Shown: positions 2,083-53,915, numbered from the stretch's first letter. The stretch: DNA of 64,000 nt from a bacterium BMS3Abin14 (GCA_002897695.1 BDTG01000043.1:7934-71933), one strand, 5' to 3'. The notes: generated by a model not told the origin, from the letters alone. Translations and numbers: made by a program.

Positions 2083-3066
2083 TCAATCAATAGTCGCATA
2101 CCTCCTCTCGAGGTACTGGACGAACATGGAAAGGGAGAAGGTCAGCATGAGATAGAGGGCCGCCACGGTAAAGAAGGCCTCGAATGGGTTGAACGTCGAG
2201 GTCGCGATCTCGCGGCCCGCCTTGGTGAGATCGGTAATGGCAATTATCGATACCAGGGACGAGTCCTTGATAAGTGATATGAACTGGCCCGCCAGAGGCG
2301 GCATTATGCGTTTGAGAGCCTGTGGAAGAATTATGAACTGCATGGCCTGGGGATAGGTCATGCCAAGGGACCTGGCGGCCTCCATCTGTCCCCTGTGAAT
2401 GGACTGGATCCCGGCTCGCACGATCTCCGCCACGTACGCGCCGGCGAAGAAGGAGAGGGCCAGGATTCCGGCAACCTCGTTGGACAGTGAGAATAGCTGT
2501 CCGATGAAGAAGTAGAAGATGTAGATCTGGACCAGAAGAGGGGTCCCACGGATCAGTTCGATGTATCCTATGGCCAGCCATTTGGGCGCGGGGCTGGAGG
2601 ATATGCGCGCAAGACCGGTAATGAGTCCGATGAACACCGCCAGGATAACCGAAATGAAGGACATTTTAAGGGTGAGCCATAGACCGATGAGGAGAATTCC
2701 CGGCACCCATTTTTTATATGATCCGATGACATCCCCTGAATCCAGGTTGTCGCCCTCGTAAACCTCTACTTCTCCGGCAGGCACCCGGTACGTTTCGTCC
2801 TTTCCGTCGAAAGTGCGCAGGACGACCACTCTGTCTTTCCCGTCATCCCTGATGGCCGAGACAGTGCCAGGGTCCGTTGCCGTTATATCTATCTGTTTAT
2901 GGAAATAGAGATATCGGGGCATTCGCTGCCATTGCCAGATGTAATCAATCTTTTCTGTGGCCCTTCCGATTCCGAGGACCATGCCGAGGAGAACGAGGAC
3001 GAGGATACTCCAGGAGATGCTGTGTCGAACCCTTACATCACGGGACAGGCGTTTTAAAGCATTCAA
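2083..3066 (-). CDS. Polar amino-acid ABC transporter permease (HisM/GlnP family) with ~110-aa N-terminal extension
   Basis: C-terminal two-thirds matches the His/Glu/Gln/Arg/opine permease family (…ELIRGTPLLVQIYIFYF…). Operon with the ATPase and the binding protein. Confidence 0.85.
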   Translation of the reverse strand: MNALKRLSRDVRVRHSISWSILVLVLLGMVLGIGRATEKIDYIWQWQRMPRYLYFHKQIDITATDPGTVSAIRDDGKDRVVVLRTFDGKDETYRVPAGEVEVYEGDNLDSGDVIGSYKKWVPGILLIGLWLTLKMSFISVILAVFIGLITGLARISSSPAPKWLAIGYIELIRGTPLLVQIYIFYFFIGQLFSLSNEVAGILALSFFAGAYVAEIVRAGIQSIHRGQMEAARSLGMTYPQAMQFIILPQALKRIMPPLAGQFISLIKDSSLVSIIAITDLTKAGREIATSTFNPFEAFFTVAALYLMLTFSLSMFVQYLERRYATID

Positions 3067-3180
3067 CAGGGGTTTTCCCCTTCAGGATGTCAGGATGAAA
3101 ACGGTTACCGGGGAGGCTGTACCGCTCCCCCCCGGTAACCGGAGGATCGTCAATCGGAGAGATTCTTTACGAGGCCGCCC

Positions 3181-4022: not shown

Positions 4023-4061
4023 TTGACAGGGTTGTAAAAAGTCCATCAATGGCTTTTTACC
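4023..4061 (+). repeat. Family-2 dispersed motif copy (TTGACAGGGTTGTAAAAAGTC) with hairpin GTAAAAAG…CTTTTTAC
   Basis: Seen directly. Same ~21-nt motif at 13864, 53891 and, reverse-complemented, at 40807, 5868 and 34467. Confidence 0.7.
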
Positions 4062-4360: not shown

Positions 4361-4389
4361 TTGACAGTGATCGGGGGCTGCCTTAAAAT
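4361..4389 (+). promoter_or_regulatory. Near-consensus sigma70 promoter TTGACA-N17-TAAAAT upstream of membrane-protein gene
   Basis: TTGACA at 4361-4366, 17-nt spacer, TAAAAT at 4384-4389; RBS aaggagg follows at 4399-4405. Confidence 0.5.
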
Positions 4390-4410: not shown

Positions 4411-4806
4411 GTGGAGGATTATCTGGTCCCGATTCTGGGTTCAGTGACAGGCGTGAAAATGGCCCAGTGGAAGGTTATCTTTTTCTTTTCACTGAAAGTT
4501 TTTCTTTTCTGTGTCCCTTTTATTGTTCTGGGTCTGCTCATCGAACATGACGTGATCCGGGTGCCTGTGAAAAACAGGGTTATCAAGATCTGCGTGGCGC
4601 TTCTGTTTGCCACTCCTGTTTTTCTTTTCGGTCTGTTTAACTTTATTGCTCCACGGCTGCCCGATGCATTCTGGGCCACCCATTCCACCCTGGAACAGTT
4701 CTGGATCATGGAAGGAAAATGGTCTCCGCTTGTTCTCATGGCAATTGTGATCCTTTTTGTGCTCCTGTATCTCCTTGAGACGATAGGTGGAGAGCTGACG
4801 AAATAG
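4411..4806 (+). CDS. Hypothetical integral membrane protein (GTG start)
   Basis: 131 aa with 3-4 hydrophobic helices; strong promoter and RBS immediately upstream. Confidence 0.5.
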   Translation: MEDYLVPILGSVTGVKMAQWKVIFFFSLKVFLFCVPFIVLGLLIEHDVIRVPVKNRVIKICVALLFATPVFLFGLFNFIAPRLPDAFWATHSTLEQFWIMEGKWSPLVLMAIVILFVLLYLLETIGGELTK

Positions 4807-5790: not shown

Positions 5791-5813
5791 TCTTTCCTCG
5801 ACAGGAATTTTCA

Positions 5814-5847
5814 GGGGAAGGGCCGTTGCGGCTCTTCCCCTTTTTTA
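5814..5847 (+). terminator. Rho-independent terminator after rpsI
   Basis: GGGGAAGggccgttgcggCTCTTCCCC stem followed by TTTTTTA. Confidence 0.7.
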
Positions 5848-5947
5848 TCCACCGTGAAACGCTTTATGGGCTTTTTACGACTCTGTTAATGATTTGTGAT
5901 ATGATTCAATACCTTGGCTGTTCAGGGTAATGTAGACGGGAGGGACG

Positions 5948-6994: not shown

Positions 6995-7266
6995 GAGAAA
7001 GTTCAAGGCCCGGAGTCCAGGGTCCAACGGTTACTACAGATCCTTTCGTTTTACAGGGCCGAAAAAATCCATTCATGGTTTTTTTCTTCACCACAACCCC
7101 ACGCGGTGCCGGGTAATTAACAAAAAGTCCAATTATATCGAAAGGTTACGGCTTAACATCCAGCCTGTTTTTCTTGACACCCCATCGGTCGCGTGTTAAC
7201 TCTTAATCGAGATATGGGCAATGGGCAATAAAAGCAAGTTTGGCGTTCGAATTTCAAGGTTGTTTC

Positions 7267-7352: not shown

Positions 7353-10016
7353 ATGCCTGGGTTGAAGATCCTTGTCATTGAGGATGACCAGTTTTTTCAG
7401 CAATATGTCAACGACCTCCTGCAGGATTTTAACGTTGACCTTATTAACGCCATGGATGGCGAGGAAGGGCTTCTCCTTGCCCAATCGGAGAAGCCTGACC
7501 TGATCCTTACCGACATTGAAATTCCTAAAATCCAGGGATTTGTCCTGTTGAACCAGTTAAAGGAGATGCCTCAGACAGCCGATATTCCCGTGGTCCTCAT
7601 GTCCGGGAAGGTGGAAAAGGACCTTCTTGACAAGCATTCACGGCTGAGCGTTCACGCCGAAGGGTACCTCCTGAAGCCTTTTTCCCGGGCTGAGCTCCAC
7701 GGAGAAATCACCAGAGTCATGGGGCCGGATGCCCTGACGGCGGACGGAGTTTCCGGTGATGCTTCCGCAGAAGAATCACTGCCCGTGGCGCCTGCCCCCG
7801 TCTTGCCCCCCACCGCTGAAGGGGCCGGGATTAAGAAACGATCCAGGCCGCTGGTCCTTGTGGTTGATGATTCCTCCTATGTTTTAATCCAGACAAGCGA
7901 TCTCTTAAAGGAAGCCGGGTTGGATGTCGATGTTGCCATGGATGGGGATGCAGGCCTTGCCAAATGCATGGAGATCAGGCCGGACATCGTTCTCCTGGAT
8001 GTGCAGATGCCTTCAAGCAACGGTTTCATCGTCTGTGAGACGCTTAAGAAAAACCCGGACACGAGAACAATTCCAGTAATTCTCATGTCGGCAGTGGTTG
8101 ATACTGATTCATTTGAACGGCATTCCAGGCTGAAATACCATGCCGACGCCTATCTGCAGAAGCCCTTTAAGAGGGCCGAACTGCTGGATCTGATTTTCGG
8201 GCACCTTGCGATGGATCCATCGTCGGACGGAGTGCAGAGCAGGACCGGTTTTCTTTTTCAGGATGAAAACAGATTGCCGGTGGAACAGTCGGAAAGGGAA
8301 ACCCGGTTGGCTGTCAGGCTCGCCGAAATTGAAGGCAAACTTAATGAGGCGGCTGAATTGCTGGAATCGCACCGATCCCGGGAGGAGGCTTTCCAAAAGG
8401 AGATCGATAATCTTCGGAAGGATAATGATCAGTTTGCCGAGGAACGGAAAGAAGAACTTCGCCAATGGGAGGATCGTAGAAGACGGCTTGTTGAAAAAGT
8501 CACAATTGCTTCCAGACGTGCAGAAGAGGCAGTCGGGGAAGCCGAGGAGATCAGGAACAATGGCCTGAAGCTGAAAATGGACATGGAAGCAGCCCTTATG
8601 GCCAAGGCCGAAATAGAGGAACAGGCCAAATCTGTAGTTGAGGGCATGAAGAATAGTCTGGGCGGCGCCGAATCGGATGATGGCCTTGCTCGTCTCGGCA
8701 AGGAGAATATTGAGCTGCGGAGCCGTCTGGCTGAGGCAGGGGCCGGAGCAGCAAGCCTGGTGCGGCTGCAGTCCGATCTGGACCGGGCCAGGGAGGAAAA
8801 CCGTGAGCTCAGGGAGTCCATGTCTTCCATGCCGGACCGCTCGGGCTTGAATGAGGAAATAAAAAACCTCCAGGAGCAACTGAAAGCTGCCAACGCCGGG
8901 ACCACCGCCGGCAACGAGGAGAAACTTGGACTTCAATCCACCATCGATTCACTGCATGCCGAGAAGGGGAAAGCTCGGGAAGAGGAAAAAAAGGCAGCTG
9001 AAAAAATGGCCGAGGCCCTCGATGATTTTAACCGGATCCGGGTGGAGGCTGAGAATTTAAGAGCACAACTGGCCGAGGCTCAGCAATTGGCCCTTCAGAC
9101 GGAGACACTGGAGAAAGAGCTGGATTCCCTGAGAACGACGGCAGGGGAAGCCAAGGGGTTGCGGGACCTCAATGGAAAATTGCGTGCTGAACTGGAAGGG
9201 CTAAAGCAATCCTGCGCGGCCCTTTCCGAAAGCCTGGAGCACGAACGCGAGAAAATGTCCATTGCTCAGAAAGAGGCCGAATTTGCCCGAAAGGAGTTGG
9301 AAGGTGCGCAGGAGGAAAGAAAACGTTCTGCCGGGCTGAAAAGGGATCTTGAGGAGAAGACGAACAGGTTGGAGACATTGCAGGCTCAAAGCCGGATACT
9401 GGAAAAGGAAAATCATCTTTTGCAGGAGCGCCTCCAGGCCGGAATTCAATCGGGCGGCGTTTCGCTTCAGGCGGGGCAGGCCAACCCTCAGGAGGAACTC
9501 CTTTCCAGCCGGTTAAGCCAGTTGGAGCAGGTCCTGAGGCGAACCGTAGGTGATGCCCAAGCTGTTCTCATGGATCAACAGGGTAAGGAGAAGGGGCTTG
9601 AGGAGAAGATAAACACCCTTGTGAATACCCTTGAGGCTGAACGGAAAGAGCATGGAAAAGAAAGGGAGGAATGGCGTTCCCGTGAAGTCGACCTCAAAAA
9701 TAGCATGGAGGAATTTTTTGATGAGCGCAGCAGACGGATGGGGGAGGAATTGTCACGGCTTTACCCCATTCCCGTCGCAAGGGCGCAGCGCCCCCTTGAG
9801 GTAGTTCGTCCGGGCCGCCGATTTGGATCTTTTGCCCTCATTGGCCTGCTTTTGCTGATAGCCATTCTCCTGGGCTACCTGGTGATCTCACGATTACCGG
9901 AGAAAAAACTCCCCGCCGGCCAGGGGAGGCTTCAGGGACAGACTATGATATTACCACATGGCCCAGGGCGGCCCGACCCCGGCCAGGGCATAATACAGCA
10001 ACCCGTCAATTGTTGA
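7353..10016 (+). CDS. Tandem response-regulator receiver (REC-REC) protein with ~550-aa coiled coil and C-terminal transmembrane anchor
   Basis: Two CheY-like domains each with a phospho-acceptor Asp (LILTDIEIP; IVLLDVQMP) and K (LLKPF / LQKPF). Residues ~295-830 are heptad-rich, E/K/R/L/A-rich. C-terminal hydrophobic FGSFALIGLLLLIAILLGYLVI. Confidence 0.85.
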   Translation: MPGLKILVIEDDQFFQQYVNDLLQDFNVDLINAMDGEEGLLLAQSEKPDLILTDIEIPKIQGFVLLNQLKEMPQTADIPVVLMSGKVEKDLLDKHSRLSVHAEGYLLKPFSRAELHGEITRVMGPDALTADGVSGDASAEESLPVAPAPVLPPTAEGAGIKKRSRPLVLVVDDSSYVLIQTSDLLKEAGLDVDVAMDGDAGLAKCMEIRPDIVLLDVQMPSSNGFIVCETLKKNPDTRTIPVILMSAVVDTDSFERHSRLKYHADAYLQKPFKRAELLDLIFGHLAMDPSSDGVQSRTGFLFQDENRLPVEQSERETRLAVRLAEIEGKLNEAAELLESHRSREEAFQKEIDNLRKDNDQFAEERKEELRQWEDRRRRLVEKVTIASRRAEEAVGEAEEIRNNGLKLKMDMEAALMAKAEIEEQAKSVVEGMKNSLGGAESDDGLARLGKENIELRSRLAEAGAGAASLVRLQSDLDRAREENRELRESMSSMPDRSGLNEEIKNLQEQLKAANAGTTAGNEEKLGLQSTIDSLHAEKGKAREEEKKAAEKMAEALDDFNRIRVEAENLRAQLAEAQQLALQTETLEKELDSLRTTAGEAKGLRDLNGKLRAELEGLKQSCAALSESLEHEREKMSIAQKEAEFARKELEGAQEERKRSAGLKRDLEEKTNRLETLQAQSRILEKENHLLQERLQAGIQSGGVSLQAGQANPQEELLSSRLSQLEQVLRRTVGDAQAVLMDQQGKEKGLEEKINTLVNTLEAERKEHGKEREEWRSREVDLKNSMEEFFDERSRRMGEELSRLYPIPVARAQRPLEVVRPGRRFGSFALIGLLLLIAILLGYLVISRLPEKKLPAGQGRLQGQTMILPHGPGRPDPGQGIIQQPVNC

Positions 10017-10143
10017 TGATTTTGCAAAAAGTCATCGATAATCTCCCTCTCGCTCTCTATGGGAGAGGGTCAGGGTGAGGGCTTGGAACCGGGTGGATTT
10101 ACCAGGGACTTTTAACGAGTCCATCAACACGTCGAGGTTATCG

Positions 10144-13818: not shown

Positions 13819-13863
13819 CGCAGCAGCTTTCAATACACGCCCAGATTGCATCCCCGCCCGTAT

Positions 13864-13904
13864 TGACAGGGTTGTGAAAAGTCCGTCAGCGACTTTTTCT
13901 ACCT
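13864..13904 (+). repeat. Family-2 motif copy (TTGACAGGGTTGTGAAAAGTC) with hairpin GAAAAGTC…GACTTTTC
   Basis: Seen directly, in the rpoZ-spoT intergenic region. Confidence 0.7.
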
Positions 13905-13990
13905 TGCCGTACTTGATGACTCCCTGAAAAGCCATCACAATAACGGACGGGGGTTTTTTCTCGCGTGGGGAGATCACTGAGGCCAATCAG

Positions 13991-34374: not shown

Positions 34375-34521
34375 AACAGTGCATCTCCTTACCCTTCCTC
34401 TCCCTGGAAAACTTGACATCATGGGGCATTAGCGGTTAATTGTCCCACTTGGCAGAAAGAGCTGTAGACTATTTTTACGACCATATCACACATATCACAG
34501 TTGTTTTGAGAGGAATGGGCA

Positions 34522-37657: not shown

Positions 37658-37810
37658 CCCGCCATCTCCTGTCGTCCCAAATCGCCAGAATGTTCTTGAC
37701 CGGAATCGTGGAATTGTACCAGAATGGGCCCGGATAGGGTTTTTCGTTCATGAGTCTTGAGGATCTTGTCCGTCTTATTGTTGGTCGAACAGCTGAAGGG
37801 AACTGGGAGA

Positions 37811-39118
37811 ATGGGAGCTTTCAGAAAGAATGGTTGTGGATATTTTCCGCTTTTTTTGACGGTCTTGGGTTGTCTGGTGGTTCTTGCATCCATGGTTCCT
37901 GTCGCCTGGGCAGCTGAATATTCCCTTTCTTCCAGATCCTATCTCTATCTCCACGAACGTGATAACGCAATCGGTCCCAATGACCATCTGGCTCCCCTTT
38001 ACGAGTACCTGTCCCTTGACGTATGGGACCTCAAGGAGGCTAATCTATCGTTCCATTCGTACGGATGGGGGAGGGTCGATCTCGCGGATGCATCAGCAGG
38101 CGGAAGGAACAGCGGCGACATTTCCAGCGCCTACCTCCAATACCGGTATCCCACCGGAAACGGCCAGGCGAAACTGGGCAGGTTCTTCCTGGCCGAGGGT
38201 ACTACCACCGAAACCCTGGACGGCCTTTTTCTGAAGGGCACAGGGAAAGGGGGCTTCGGCGCGTCATTCTACGCCGGGAACCCGGTGGAGAACTCAATTA
38301 TAGCTTCGGGGGGAGGGAACTCCCTCGTGGGGGGAAGGGTCTTTTACGTCCGTCCCGGTCTTGCCGAAGCCGGTTTTGGCTACCTCTTCGAGAATGGGGA
38401 TTTTCAGGGTAAAAACCGGGAGGAAGCAGGCGGCGATCTCTGGGTGCGTTTCGCGCCTTCATGGGATCTCACCGGTAAGATTGTTTACAACCTGACCACC
38501 AGCGAACTTGCCTCTCATCGGGTAGCGTTCCGCCTGGTCCCCGTCAACACTATTGACCTTGAACTGGGCACTGAAGGTTACCGCTACGATGGTCTGTTTC
38601 AAAAATCCCTTCATCCGGCGTTTCTGCCGCCGTCCGCAAATGGCAGCGACAAGGTCCGAAAACTGTTCGCGGACTGTGACTGGCAGGCCACTGAGAGACT
38701 GTCCGTTCAGGCCGGCGTCAAAAGAATCCACCACGACGCCGATGATCCGGGTGACGCTGCCTACGGAGAGCTTGGCTTTCGCCTTCAGATGGAAGGGGTC
38801 CTGAACCTGCTCGGTTTTTCGGCAGCCCTTCAGACTGCCGATCTGTCGGAGAACGAATATCGGGAATTAAGAGGATGGCTCATGGGAACCGTCAGGAAGT
38901 GGAGTTTTTCCCTCGATGCCCTGACCTATCTCTACGAGGTGCCCGTCAACGGAGTGGATACCTCCACCCAGATTGTAGGCTCTGCCGGTTGGAAGGCCAG
39001 TACCCTTCTTTCTCTTTCCGGCGACGTGAGATACACCCGGAGCCCCCGGTATGCCAAGGATCTGACCATACTGCTCAGGGCGGACTTTGCCCTGGACGGA
39101 TCATGGGGAGGGAAGTAA
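37811..39118 (+). CDS. Secreted Gly-rich protein, putative outer-membrane beta-barrel (porin-like), adjacent to multihaem cytochromes
   Basis: Signal peptide …LASMVPVAWA/AEY; alternating amphipathic beta-strand-like segments; Gly-rich stretches. ATG 37811 preferred over the listed 37757. Confidence 0.5.
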   Translation: MGAFRKNGCGYFPLFLTVLGCLVVLASMVPVAWAAEYSLSSRSYLYLHERDNAIGPNDHLAPLYEYLSLDVWDLKEANLSFHSYGWGRVDLADASAGGRNSGDISSAYLQYRYPTGNGQAKLGRFFLAEGTTTETLDGLFLKGTGKGGFGASFYAGNPVENSIIASGGGNSLVGGRVFYVRPGLAEAGFGYLFENGDFQGKNREEAGGDLWVRFAPSWDLTGKIVYNLTTSELASHRVAFRLVPVNTIDLELGTEGYRYDGLFQKSLHPAFLPPSANGSDKVRKLFADCDWQATERLSVQAGVKRIHHDADDPGDAAYGELGFRLQMEGVLNLLGFSAALQTADLSENEYRELRGWLMGTVRKWSFSLDALTYLYEVPVNGVDTSTQIVGSAGWKASTLLSLSGDVRYTRSPRYAKDLTILLRADFALDGSWGGK

Positions 39119-39120
39119 TT

Positions 39121-39585
39121 ATGAGGTACGTGAGGGGATTTCTGCTTTTTGTGCCGGTGCTGCTTCTCCTGACCGCCTGCTCCGGGTTATCCACAAGAGA
39201 GTCGGTACCGCTCCGCCACCCGGAGGAGCTTGAGCAGGGCAGGGTCAACTGTCTCGAATGTCACGAAGACGAAACGTCCGGAGCCCTTAAACCCTACGGC
39301 TCTTTCCCGCACACGGCGGTTTTTCTCAAGGAACACGGATCTTACGCCTCTCAGACCCAGAACCTCTGTTCCACCTGTCACTCACCCTCCTGGTGTCAGA
39401 CGTGTCATGCCGTCCGTGAGGAACTCAAGCCTGGAATCAAGTACGGCAATCGTCCTGATCTGGGCCTGCCCCATCGGGGAGATTTCATAATACAGCACCA
39501 GAAGGAAGGGAGGATCGACCCGGGATCGTGTCTGACTTGTCACGGCAACCGGAACAACCGGGTATGCGGCAGGTGCCATCATTGA
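39121..39585 (+). CDS. Pentahaem c-type cytochrome lipoprotein
   Basis: Lipobox LLTAC; five CxxCH motifs (CLECH, CSTCH, CQTCH, CLTCH, CGRCH) in 154 aa. Confidence 0.8.
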   Translation: MRYVRGFLLFVPVLLLLTACSGLSTRESVPLRHPEELEQGRVNCLECHEDETSGALKPYGSFPHTAVFLKEHGSYASQTQNLCSTCHSPSWCQTCHAVREELKPGIKYGNRPDLGLPHRGDFIIQHQKEGRIDPGSCLTCHGNRNNRVCGRCHH

Positions 39586-39609
39586 TGACTTCGTGAAAAG
39601 TCATCAATG
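39580..39609 (+). repeat. 12-bp-stem hairpin CATTGATGACTT…AAGTCATCAATG (family-2 related) overlapping the cytochrome stop codon
   Basis: Seen directly; related AAAAGTCATCAAT core also at 10014-10043. Confidence 0.6.
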
Positions 39610-39771
39610 CGCCCACTTGGGGGCCTCAAATCGAAGATTTGTGAGGAGAGCGGAAATGACACTTTTCGCTTTCCGTGGAGTAAAAGGTAACGGATGCACT
39701 TTTTACGACTCTAATAATATATACAGAGCCCGCGAACCAGGGAAACTGTCTGTGATATTCCGGAGGTTGAG

Positions 39772-40431
39772 ATGAAAACAGGGATAAACAGGATAAAAAG
39801 GGAACGGGGAATTGCCGCGGGCCTTTCATCGCCCTGGATACCCGGTGTCTGGGCCCACCCCCTCACCCACACGGATCCGGTAGTATCCCACGGCCAGTTC
39901 AAGGGCACCCCTGACGAGACTGTTTGCATCAACTGCCATGATGTCAACAACCAGTTCGGCAACATGCCCACGCCGTTCTGTCACAACTGCCATGGAAGTT
40001 CCCATAGCGTTCCCTCTCTGGACCACAACCAGGTTGCGCCGCTGCAGGTGGATTTCGATGGGAACTGTTCCGGTTGCCACAGTATCGACGGTTCTGCCCA
40101 GTCATTCGCCCCCGCGTGTACCACCTGCCACAAGGGGGGAAGCCCCTACATCTACACTAACTGCAGGTCCTGCCACGGAAAACCCCCCGACGGCGGAGCC
40201 CCCGTATACAGTAATTTCCCCAATCTGCAGGGGAAGCATGACAAACACAAAAGCGTCGCCACCTGTTCCGACTGCCACAGCGGCGGCGGATCGGGCGCGG
40301 GTCTCAACCACGGTTATGACAACATTGTGAACCTCCAGGCGCCTTCTGGAATCACCTTTTCTCCGGGGAGCGGCAACGTAACCTGTGCCGGTACGTGCCA
40401 CGAGAATCACAACAACCGACAATGGTACTGA
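39772..40431 (+). CDS. Multihaem c-type cytochrome (6 CxxCH plus one CxxxCH)
   Basis: CINCH, CHNCH, CSGCH, CTTCH, CRSCH, CSDCH and CAGTCH; weakly hydrophobic N-terminal region. Confidence 0.75.
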   Translation: MKTGINRIKRERGIAAGLSSPWIPGVWAHPLTHTDPVVSHGQFKGTPDETVCINCHDVNNQFGNMPTPFCHNCHGSSHSVPSLDHNQVAPLQVDFDGNCSGCHSIDGSAQSFAPACTTCHKGGSPYIYTNCRSCHGKPPDGGAPVYSNFPNLQGKHDKHKSVATCSDCHSGGGSGAGLNHGYDNIVNLQAPSGITFSPGSGNVTCAGTCHENHNNRQWY

Positions 40432-40520: not shown

Positions 40521-40597
40521 TGGTGCCCCCGGCAGGACTCGAACCTGCGGCCCCAGGATTAGGAATCCTGTGCTCTATCCTGCTGAGCTACGAGGGC
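40521..40597 (-). tRNA. tRNA-Arg (anticodon CCT), CCA encoded
   Basis: Reverse complement folds as a cloverleaf: acceptor GCCCTCG/CGGGGGC, D-stem GCTC/GAGC, anticodon stem CAGGA/TCCTG with loop TTCCTAA, T-arm GCAGG-TTCGAGT-CCTGC, discriminator A and CCA. Confidence 0.85.
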
Positions 40598-40806: not shown

Positions 40807-40830
40807 GAAGACTTTTTACGACCCTGTCAG
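40807..40830 (-). repeat. Family-2 motif copy (reverse orientation), 62-85 nt upstream of the UDP-sugar dehydrogenase gene
   Basis: gaagactttttacgaccctgtcag is the reverse complement of ctgacagggtcgtaaaaagtcttc. Confidence 0.65.
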
Positions 40831-49693: not shown

Positions 49694-49747
49694 GAAAGCC
49701 ACGAATGGATTTTTTATGACCCTATCAAGACAAAAGGGAGTCGAGCC

Positions 49748-53890: not shown

Positions 53891-53915
53891 TTGATAGGGT
53901 GGTAAAAAGTCGTAT
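53891..53915 (+). repeat. Family-2 motif copy (TTGATAGGGTGGTAAAAAGTC)
   Basis: Seen directly, just downstream of iorB and ~160 nt upstream of paaK. Confidence 0.6.

Follow-up and report, generated by a model that had tools for sequence, protein, structure and literature searches.

The question raised by this locus is whether a 21-nt sequence that begins at position 4023, and recurs in other intergenic regions, marks a set of commonly regulated genes or belongs to something larger. The window, which is the whole 64,000-nt stretch of DNA analysed here, comes from bacterium BMS3Abin14 (GCA_002897695.1, BDTG01000043.1:7934-71933). Three proteins encoded in the window match database entries of this bacterium exactly (GBE15713.1, GBE15719.1, and GBE15743.1). 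The name BMS3Abin14 serves as a placeholder for a candidate phylum (Candidatus Hudomiota), whose 12 genomes (1.54-2.86 Mb) come from hydrothermal and sub-seafloor sulphide settings (PMC11382960, PMC12400630). An earlier note on this DNA had interpreted the motif as a shared cis-regulatory site or promoter-proximal element. That interpretation did not hold: the 21-mer is very probably the left terminal repeat of a lineage-specific, non-coding, multi-copy family of modular palindromic elements resembling MITEs, REPINs, and BIMEs.

The sequence TTGAYAGGGTYGTAAAAAGTC was found six times in the window at up to three mismatches (4023+, 5869-5889-, 13863+, 40810-40830-, 49708-49728-, and 53891+), and no match appeared in 100 dinucleotide-preserving shuffles of the window. 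The 16-mer core of the 21-mer gave 11 matches compared with 0.74 expected, and GTAAAAAGTC at up to one mismatch gave 15 compared with 2.4 expected. In most window copies the 21-mer is followed by CCATnnnTGGCTTTTTAC, which forms an A/T-rich hairpin (H1). Profiles of the left, middle, and right modules of the element were built solely from copies in other genomes and then searched against the window. The left-module profile gave nine matches at E<0.05 (4023+, 5888-, 7053+, 13863+, 34488-, 39714-, 40829-, 49728-, and 53891+), the right-module profile three or four (39582-39607, 10013-10036, and 13913-13937, with 23156-23177 as a marginal match), and the middle-module profile one, at 39611-39676 only. 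All the element modules lie outside called genes in a window that is ~85% coding, and the probability that ten independent sites would all be intergenic is roughly 5e-9. A recurrent intergenic motif of ~21 nt, as the earlier note described, is therefore well founded. Its positions were right to within 1-3 nt, but the copy at 49728 and the degenerate copy starting at 7050 had been missed.

To determine where else the motif occurs, we scanned the genomes of 185,579 species (one genome per species) with the query GAYAGGGTNGTAAAAAGTC. The scan returned 77 loci, and 55 of them were in three MAGs: QIFJ01 'Proteobacteria bacterium SZUA-178' (22 loci), DAOVVW01 'Pseudomonadota bacterium CSMAG_1715' (22 loci), and JBGMRC01 'bacterium N04 bin.36' (11 loci). 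These MAGs share about 85-92% protein identity with one another, and the window shares 49-87% identity over six proteins, with conserved gene order, with locus L081 of JBGMRC01. Two further loci, L014 (a Mariprofundus MAG) and L017 (Nitrospirae SZUA-226), carry real element copies on contigs binned elsewhere; L017 and SZUA-178 come from the same metagenome sample, and mis-binning is the likely origin of both copies rather than horizontal spread. The other 20 loci are singletons in unrelated taxa without the downstream element sequence, and by our own arithmetic about 35 chance matches are expected in the 596 Gb scanned. Viral contigs contained no real element copies, with two chance matches. 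A literature search with sequence strings gave no relevant match; one string occurred once, in an unrelated poxvirus preprint. An nhmmer search of about 625 kb of loci and, in addition, the window, with a profile built from six copies, gave 126 matches.

In the three MAGs, the same ~135 nt follow the 21-mer in most copies. The element consists of the left end with H1 (TTGATAGGGTCGTAAAAAGTCCATCCATGGCTTTTTAC), H2 (TCCGCGGAAAGCGAAAAGTGTCATTTTCACTTTCC), H3 (TCACAAATCAATAACTTGCGGTGCAAGTCATTGATTTG), the G+C-rich H4 (GGCGCCCCTCAATGGGCGC), and a right-end palindrome (GTTGATGACTTCTTGCGAAGTCATCAA). The alignment of 23 full copies has a mean identity of 88%, and their consensus fold has five hairpins and 42 pairs in all, with compensatory changes in 5 pairs. 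The terminal inverted repeats are imperfect: read from the consensus, the left end TTGATAGGGTCGTAAAAAGTC and the reverse-complemented last 21 nt agree in 15-17 of 21 positions. The basic unit of 49 nt, TTGATAGGGTCGTAAAAAGTC-CATCCAT-GGCTTTTTACGAAGTCATCAA, consists of the two ends only and folds end to end (z=-5.4 and -4.1). The standard form of ~157 nt additionally carries H2-H4 between H1 and the right end, and long forms of ~290 nt contain a second, diverged copy nested in H3. Tandem copies abut as ...GTCATCAAYNTTGAYAGGG..., and deletion derivatives are reduced to the bare left end or to the left end followed by ATCAA. At one site common to loci L037 and L051, one of the two copies lacks 23 nt between the direct repeats AAGTC...AAGTC, showing that one minimal form arose by this deletion. 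The family is short and non-coding, with units of 49-290 nt, and the 126 profile matches show that it is multi-copy.

The ends of the element can also serve as stop codons: TTGATAGGG has TGA and TAG in one frame, and four ORFs in related genomes end exactly at left-end stops (L027, L078, L019, and L017). The related MAGs contain other, unrelated dispersed repeats (L079 at about 3000-3160, L081 at 4570-4700, and L042 at about 890-960), namely GGCTATAGGCTATAGGCGGTAGGCTATAGG...GGGATGAAGGGGATGG and a palindromic array of TTCCATGTTCC / GGAACCTGGAACC; both types sometimes adjoin copies of the 21-mer element.

The most complete copy in the window is the near-full-length one at 39582-39717 on the minus strand, which was detected by a profile from other genomes only (nhmmer E=2.6e-30). 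It has the left end, H1, H2, a truncated H3, H4, and the right-end palindrome (39582-39607), and its fold gave z=-3.75 on the motif strand and z=-4.80 on the opposite strand. The right end of this copy (TTGATGA) supplies the stop codon (39583-39585) of the ORF at 39121-39585, and the stem reported across a stop codon was recovered there with 12-13 bp (39580-39609). Minus-strand copy 40810-40830 is minimal, with the left end directly followed by TTCAAAT (1 mismatch; profile E=4.5e-5); it lies between tRNA-Arg(CCT) and a UDP-glucose-dehydrogenase-like gene, whose ATG (40892) is at 61 nt. The tRNA-Arg(CCT) gene is at 40521-40597 (-), and the 1.1 kb from the full copy (39717) to the minimal copy (40810) contain this tRNA and ORFs with poor coding scores.

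The copy at 4023-4060 (+) is a short form comprising the left end (4023-4043) and H1 (4034-4060), with 0 mismatches and a profile E of 3.4e-11, and 20 nt separate its left end from the ATG (4002, minus strand) of a solute-binding-protein gene. Two strong sigma-70-like promoter sites with opposite directions were seen in the same region. One, at 4361-4389 (+), is TTGACA-17-TAAAAT (11/12) ahead of the 131-aa, rplM, and rpsI genes; the other, at 4291-4263 (-), is TTGACC-17-TATATT with an upstream TG (10/12) and is directed at the solute-binding-protein gene. In related contigs, a 50-aa ORF was called between the latter site and the motif. The copy at 13863-13937 (+) is a two-ended short form that was also folded, with the left end at 13863-13883 (left module E=0.0045), H1, and the right-end palindrome at 13913-13937 (right module E=0.0027); it lies between rpoZ and relA/spoT with its left end toward the rpoZ stop. 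The hairpins at 4033-4061 and 13874-13900 fold as had been claimed, each of them alone being marginally better than shuffles (z -1.2 to -2.4).

The remaining left ends are more degraded. On the minus strand, the copy at 5866-5889 has a degenerate H1 (3 mismatches; profile E=0.0031) and lies between the rpsI terminator (5813-5841) and argC, whose ATG (5948) is at 58 nt. Beside argC, there is a single CRP/FNR-like half-match to the palindrome TGTGA-N6-TCACA, TGTGA-N6-TCAAT, at 5896-5911 (TGTGATATGATTCAAT), and TGATTTGTGATATGATTCAATA (5890-5911), directly upstream of argC, loosely resembles the arginine-repressor (ARG) box half-palindrome TGAAT...ATTCA, again as a single instance. A degenerate left end with H1, TTTACAGGGCCGAAAAAATCC..., is found at 7050-7086 (+; profile E=6.3e-5 over 7053-7084) with its left end toward the argC stop (6994). 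The degenerate solo left end at 34469-34489 (-), which had been placed at 34467, is a profile match but a weak one (E=0.025; 16-mer core with 3 mismatches), and the glyQ ATG (34522) is at 32 nt. The copy at 49695-49728 (-), a left end with weakened H1 (3 mismatches; profile E=3.7e-9), occupies most of the 54 nt that separate two same-direction genes, with the ATG (49748) at 19 nt. A solo left end at 53891-53911 (+; 2 mismatches; profile E=0.0034) lies 14 nt past the stop (53876) of the upstream gene.

Most of the sites previously listed as weaker AAAAAGTC(A/C)TCAAT copies represent another module of the element, the right-end palindrome TTGATGACTTnnnnnGAAGTCATCAA. Two are clear, namely the right end of the near-full-length copy at 39582-39607 and a solo palindrome, TTGATGATTTTGCAAAAAGTCATC(GA), at 10013-10036, which has no assigned strand (right-module E=2.9e-4; 13-bp stem, z=-5.45) and overlaps the stop of a response-regulator gene by 4 nt. 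The site at 23156-23177 (-) is a possible right-end remnant of low confidence (right-module E=0.096), and the one at 7115 had no right-end score and is a possible remnant by eye.

The position of the copies relative to genes was analyzed with our own crude ORF and codon-usage gene caller, the calls of which are approximate; same-site copies in different genomes were collapsed, giving 74 independent loci in four genomes. The gene context of the window was taken from contigs of the same species. It reads solute-binding-protein gene (minus), motif, 131-aa gene, rplM, rpsI, motif, and argC; rpoZ, motif, and relA/spoT; recO, weak motif, glyQ, and glyS; and tRNA-Arg, motif, and the UDP-glucose-dehydrogenase-like gene. 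Over the 74 loci, the left end faced a gene start in 40 cases and a gene end in 18 (p=0.005), so the proposed preference for gene starts was borne out overall, but within same-direction gene pairs the counts were 23 toward the downstream start and 12 toward the upstream stop (p=0.09), which is a trend. Among the 40 copies facing a start, 7 lie 18-23 nt and 10 lie 31-62 nt before the start codon. The tendency toward the 5' side of genes and the pile-up just outside the ribosome-binding site are thus real but modest.

Of the nine left ends in the window, six are turned toward starts (20, 58, 32, 54, 61, and 19 nt away) and three toward stops. The distances given earlier for the solute-binding-protein gene (20), argC (58), glyQ (32), and the UDP-glucose dehydrogenase-like gene (61) were reproduced. 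The shared orientation of these four copies was also correct, but the choice was selective: two more copies are oriented alike (one 19 nt from ATG 49748, the other 54 nt from the ORF at 39772), and those at 7050, 13863, and 53891 have the opposite orientation, toward the stop of the upstream gene. In two species, a response-regulator-like gene (MKDKKLLLVDD...) has its ATG 4 nt from a left end (L034 at about 691 and L055 at about 760), with no Shine-Dalgarno sequence between the left end and the ATG; the leader of this gene therefore consists of repeat sequence.

The gene-start bias is one reason to consider that the 21-mer is an operator or promoter-proximal site through which one regulator controls a set of genes. 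The 40:18 ratio, the six of nine window copies located 19-61 nt before a start codon, and a perfect TTGACA in four window copies are all consistent with this idea. However, the motif forms the end of a modular repeat that also exists in full length, a result which the earlier note had listed as refuting its reading. Its sites do not stay with the same genes from one related genome to another, and three of the nine window copies lie just past a stop codon in the opposite orientation. Nor do the neighboring genes have related functions; they are the genes of an ABC-transporter binding protein and a sugar dehydrogenase, together with argC, glyQ, and relA. In the 'upstream' copies, TTGACA is directed away from the adjacent gene, and as a sigma-70 -35 element it was rejected, as TTGAYA has no -10 partner at 16-18 nt. 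No sigma-70 promoter was called on either strand of four window copies and two standard elements, and no sigma-54, sigma-28, or ECF-type spacing was seen by eye on either strand. A shared operator is therefore very unlikely. The three copies past stop codons (7050, 13863, and 53891) would instead suit simple intrinsic transcription terminators, and the right-end palindrome with its T-rich junction does have a terminator-like score, on the motif strand only. This reading, in turn, is highly improbable for the motif and its hairpin: H1 is A/T-rich with its T-run inside the stem, no intrinsic terminator was called at the left end or H1, six of the nine window copies are upstream of genes in a non-terminator orientation, and the gene before argC is already followed by a canonical terminator (5813-5841), beside the motif. 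The same terminator-like right end, together with the five-hairpin fold common to all full copies, could be expected of small-RNA genes that form a multi-copy family and have a promoter (TTGACA) and a terminator (H4/right-end hairpin) of their own. Such a family is extremely improbable, because TTGAYA lacks the -10 element, most window copies consist of the left end and H1 only, and forms such as the nested, tandem, and deleted copies are usual for repeats rather than for genes. Rfam also gave no match: in the window, tRNA alone reached a gathering threshold, and for the elements in L016, L020, and L031 there was no match at E<=1, apart from one weak and unrelated match elsewhere in L016. A small ORF opposite the motif strand (GAGGAAAG-N5-ATG, MTLFAFRGVKSHGWTFYDPI...) was also considered and rejected, since the ATG is absent from 14 of 52 copies and the stops are scattered.

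Another possibility, which we consider unlikely, is that left ends with H1 near ribosome-binding sites have been co-opted as 5'-UTR RNA elements. Here the mRNA would be the strand opposite the motif, H1 would be a 5' stem-loop, and ACCCU would base-pair with the Shine-Dalgarno sequence, thereby affecting translation or the stability of the mRNA. The cluster of copies 18-23 nt before start codons (7/40) fits this arrangement, and in minimum-energy folds CCCU pairs with AGGG/GGAG in about half of 20 leaders; however, any C-rich tetramer pairs with a Shine-Dalgarno sequence by default, and the leader count has no control set. The full copy folds more stably on the strand opposite the motif (z=-4.8 vs -3.75), and the promoter at 4291-4263 (-), if used, would put the 4023 copy in the mRNA leader of the solute-binding-protein gene. 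Nevertheless, many copies either have no start within 100 nt or are turned toward a gene end. Assigning a functional strand from G-U wobble asymmetry was rejected because the hairpins were inconsistent, with H1 having a fixed wobble on the motif strand and H2 having wobbles on the other. It is likewise doubtful that the left end and H1 form a portable 5'-leader element, fixed ~20 nt before starts, in which ACCCU would sequester the Shine-Dalgarno sequence and H1 would cap the 5' region of the mRNA. If this were true, selfish repeats in this compact-genome lineage would at the same time act as a translational control module scattered over the genome. The gene-start excess and the 18-23 nt cluster are not predicted by a purely neutral repeat and leave room for co-option.

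The repeat-family interpretation was compared with known mobile systems. Target-site duplication was evaluated in 28 two-ended copies at all boundary offsets for lengths of 3-9 nt, and no setting fitted more than 7 copies at 3 nt or more than 5 at 5 nt. A perfect 9-bp flanking repeat was present in one of the 28 copies (L015). As there is no consistent duplication, the evidence falls short of a classical DDE-type MITE. The apparent direct repeats of L031 and L033 were rejected as duplications; they derive from the weakly conserved junction ATCAAYNTT|GAYAGGG of left flanks and right ends. The left flank has a weak consensus, T-C-A-W-T-N, before TTGAY, and its conservation of just 45-68% per position means that it is not an obligatory cleavage site, so an IS200/IS605-type fixed target was rejected. 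The left flank and the right end form the palindromic junction ATCAAYNTTGAY; an unlikely further possibility is that a non-DDE enzyme recognizing this junction moves the family. An HUH...Y pattern search for IS200/RAYT-type proteins, a crude test on incomplete genomes, covered the 363 proteins predicted in the loci (about 370 kb) and gave no match. Judged by the size of protein clusters and the length of genes, no transposase-like multi-copy gene family was found among the loci of up to 8 kb. All-against-all protein clustering gave one 22-member cluster, the members of which are taken, from gene lengths and window homologues, to be response-regulator or sigma-54-activator paralogues.

BIMEs of E. 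coli are extragenic mosaics of distinct palindromic modules that vary in number and order. The present elements are similarly mosaics of palindromic modules, but the modules and sequences are different. In REPINs, two inverted REPs form a hairpin, and a single-copy RAYT moves the unit (PMC3116915, PMC3337134). Like REPs and REPINs, the elements are short, multi-copy, intergenic palindromes (PMC3116915, PMC3337134) without target-site duplication; they are inherited vertically within a lineage, and singlet remnants outnumber intact units. The 49-nt unit is also REPIN-like in that two inverted ~21-nt repeats with a short spacer form one long hairpin. In contrast to REPINs, the sequence is unrelated, the standard form has three extra internal hairpins, nesting is possible, and a RAYT gene was not found in the about 370 kb screened with the crude motif test. 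Similarities to Correia elements (PMC2649163) and MITEs (PMC2229807, PMC10969869) include a size of about 50-160 bp, terminal inverted repeats, long and short forms distinguished by an internal deletion, presence or absence that varies between related genomes, and frequent location near gene starts, possibly within transcribed leaders. Neisseria Correia elements, however, duplicate a TA target and create sigma-70 promoters at their ends (PMC2649163); the present elements showed neither a consistent duplication nor a promoter call, and the sequence is unrelated. With an unrelated sequence, no consistent target duplication, and no RAYT found, the family falls outside every named family; it is a new, lineage-specific MITE/REPIN-like family of a kind that is itself well known.

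Insertion sites were compared between related genomes and between strains. The gene order of L081 matches that of the window at 30.6-37.7 kb; upstream of glyQ a copy is present in the window and absent from L081, whereas between the era-like and mgtE genes a copy is present in L081 and absent from the window. The three MAGs have some insertion sites in common. A solo left end in L045 corresponds to an empty site in L020, and L034 and L055 have a common left end with completely different interiors. Within the species of the window, every window copy covered by strain contigs is present except the full copy in L084 (SONG20-1 scaffold_8), where a 1.1-kb deletion with breakpoints not at the repeat borders has removed it. 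Compared with the window and L085/L086, the segments 37675-37896 and 38742-39840 are missing in L084, and the latter deletion also removes the 3' part of a 435-aa gene and a 154-aa gene. No recent movement was seen among the strain contigs compared. The family in the genome of the window looks old and decayed: its copies have diverged and become fixed among strains, and a single one is near complete. The eye-catching part is therefore the surviving left end with H1.

A repeat family of this type would account for the bias around genes as follows. Copies would have been spread by an enzyme acting in trans and then have decayed by slippage deletion, and effects on neighboring genes would be a by-product. 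The right-end hairpin with its T-rich tail may act as a weak terminator on the motif strand. A weak terminator between a promoter and its gene would be selected against, which would favor the opposite orientation between or upstream of same-direction genes. Insertions that break a ribosome-binding site would be lost, leaving left ends piled up just outside it; the weak-terminator right end may contribute to this pile-up as well.

In summary, the family has about ten copies in the 64 kb of the window and occupies a visible share of its scarce intergenic space. For annotation, these motifs should be masked as repeats, and no regulon or promoter should be inferred from them in BMS3Abin14-type genomes. 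This is a first description of a dispersed repeat family in an uncultured deep-sea candidate phylum with small genomes. None of its features is unprecedented for bacterial MITE/REP-type elements; nevertheless, the modular build, the lack of target duplications, and the bias toward sites just upstream of ribosome-binding sites make the family a useful case for how repeats spread and are tolerated.
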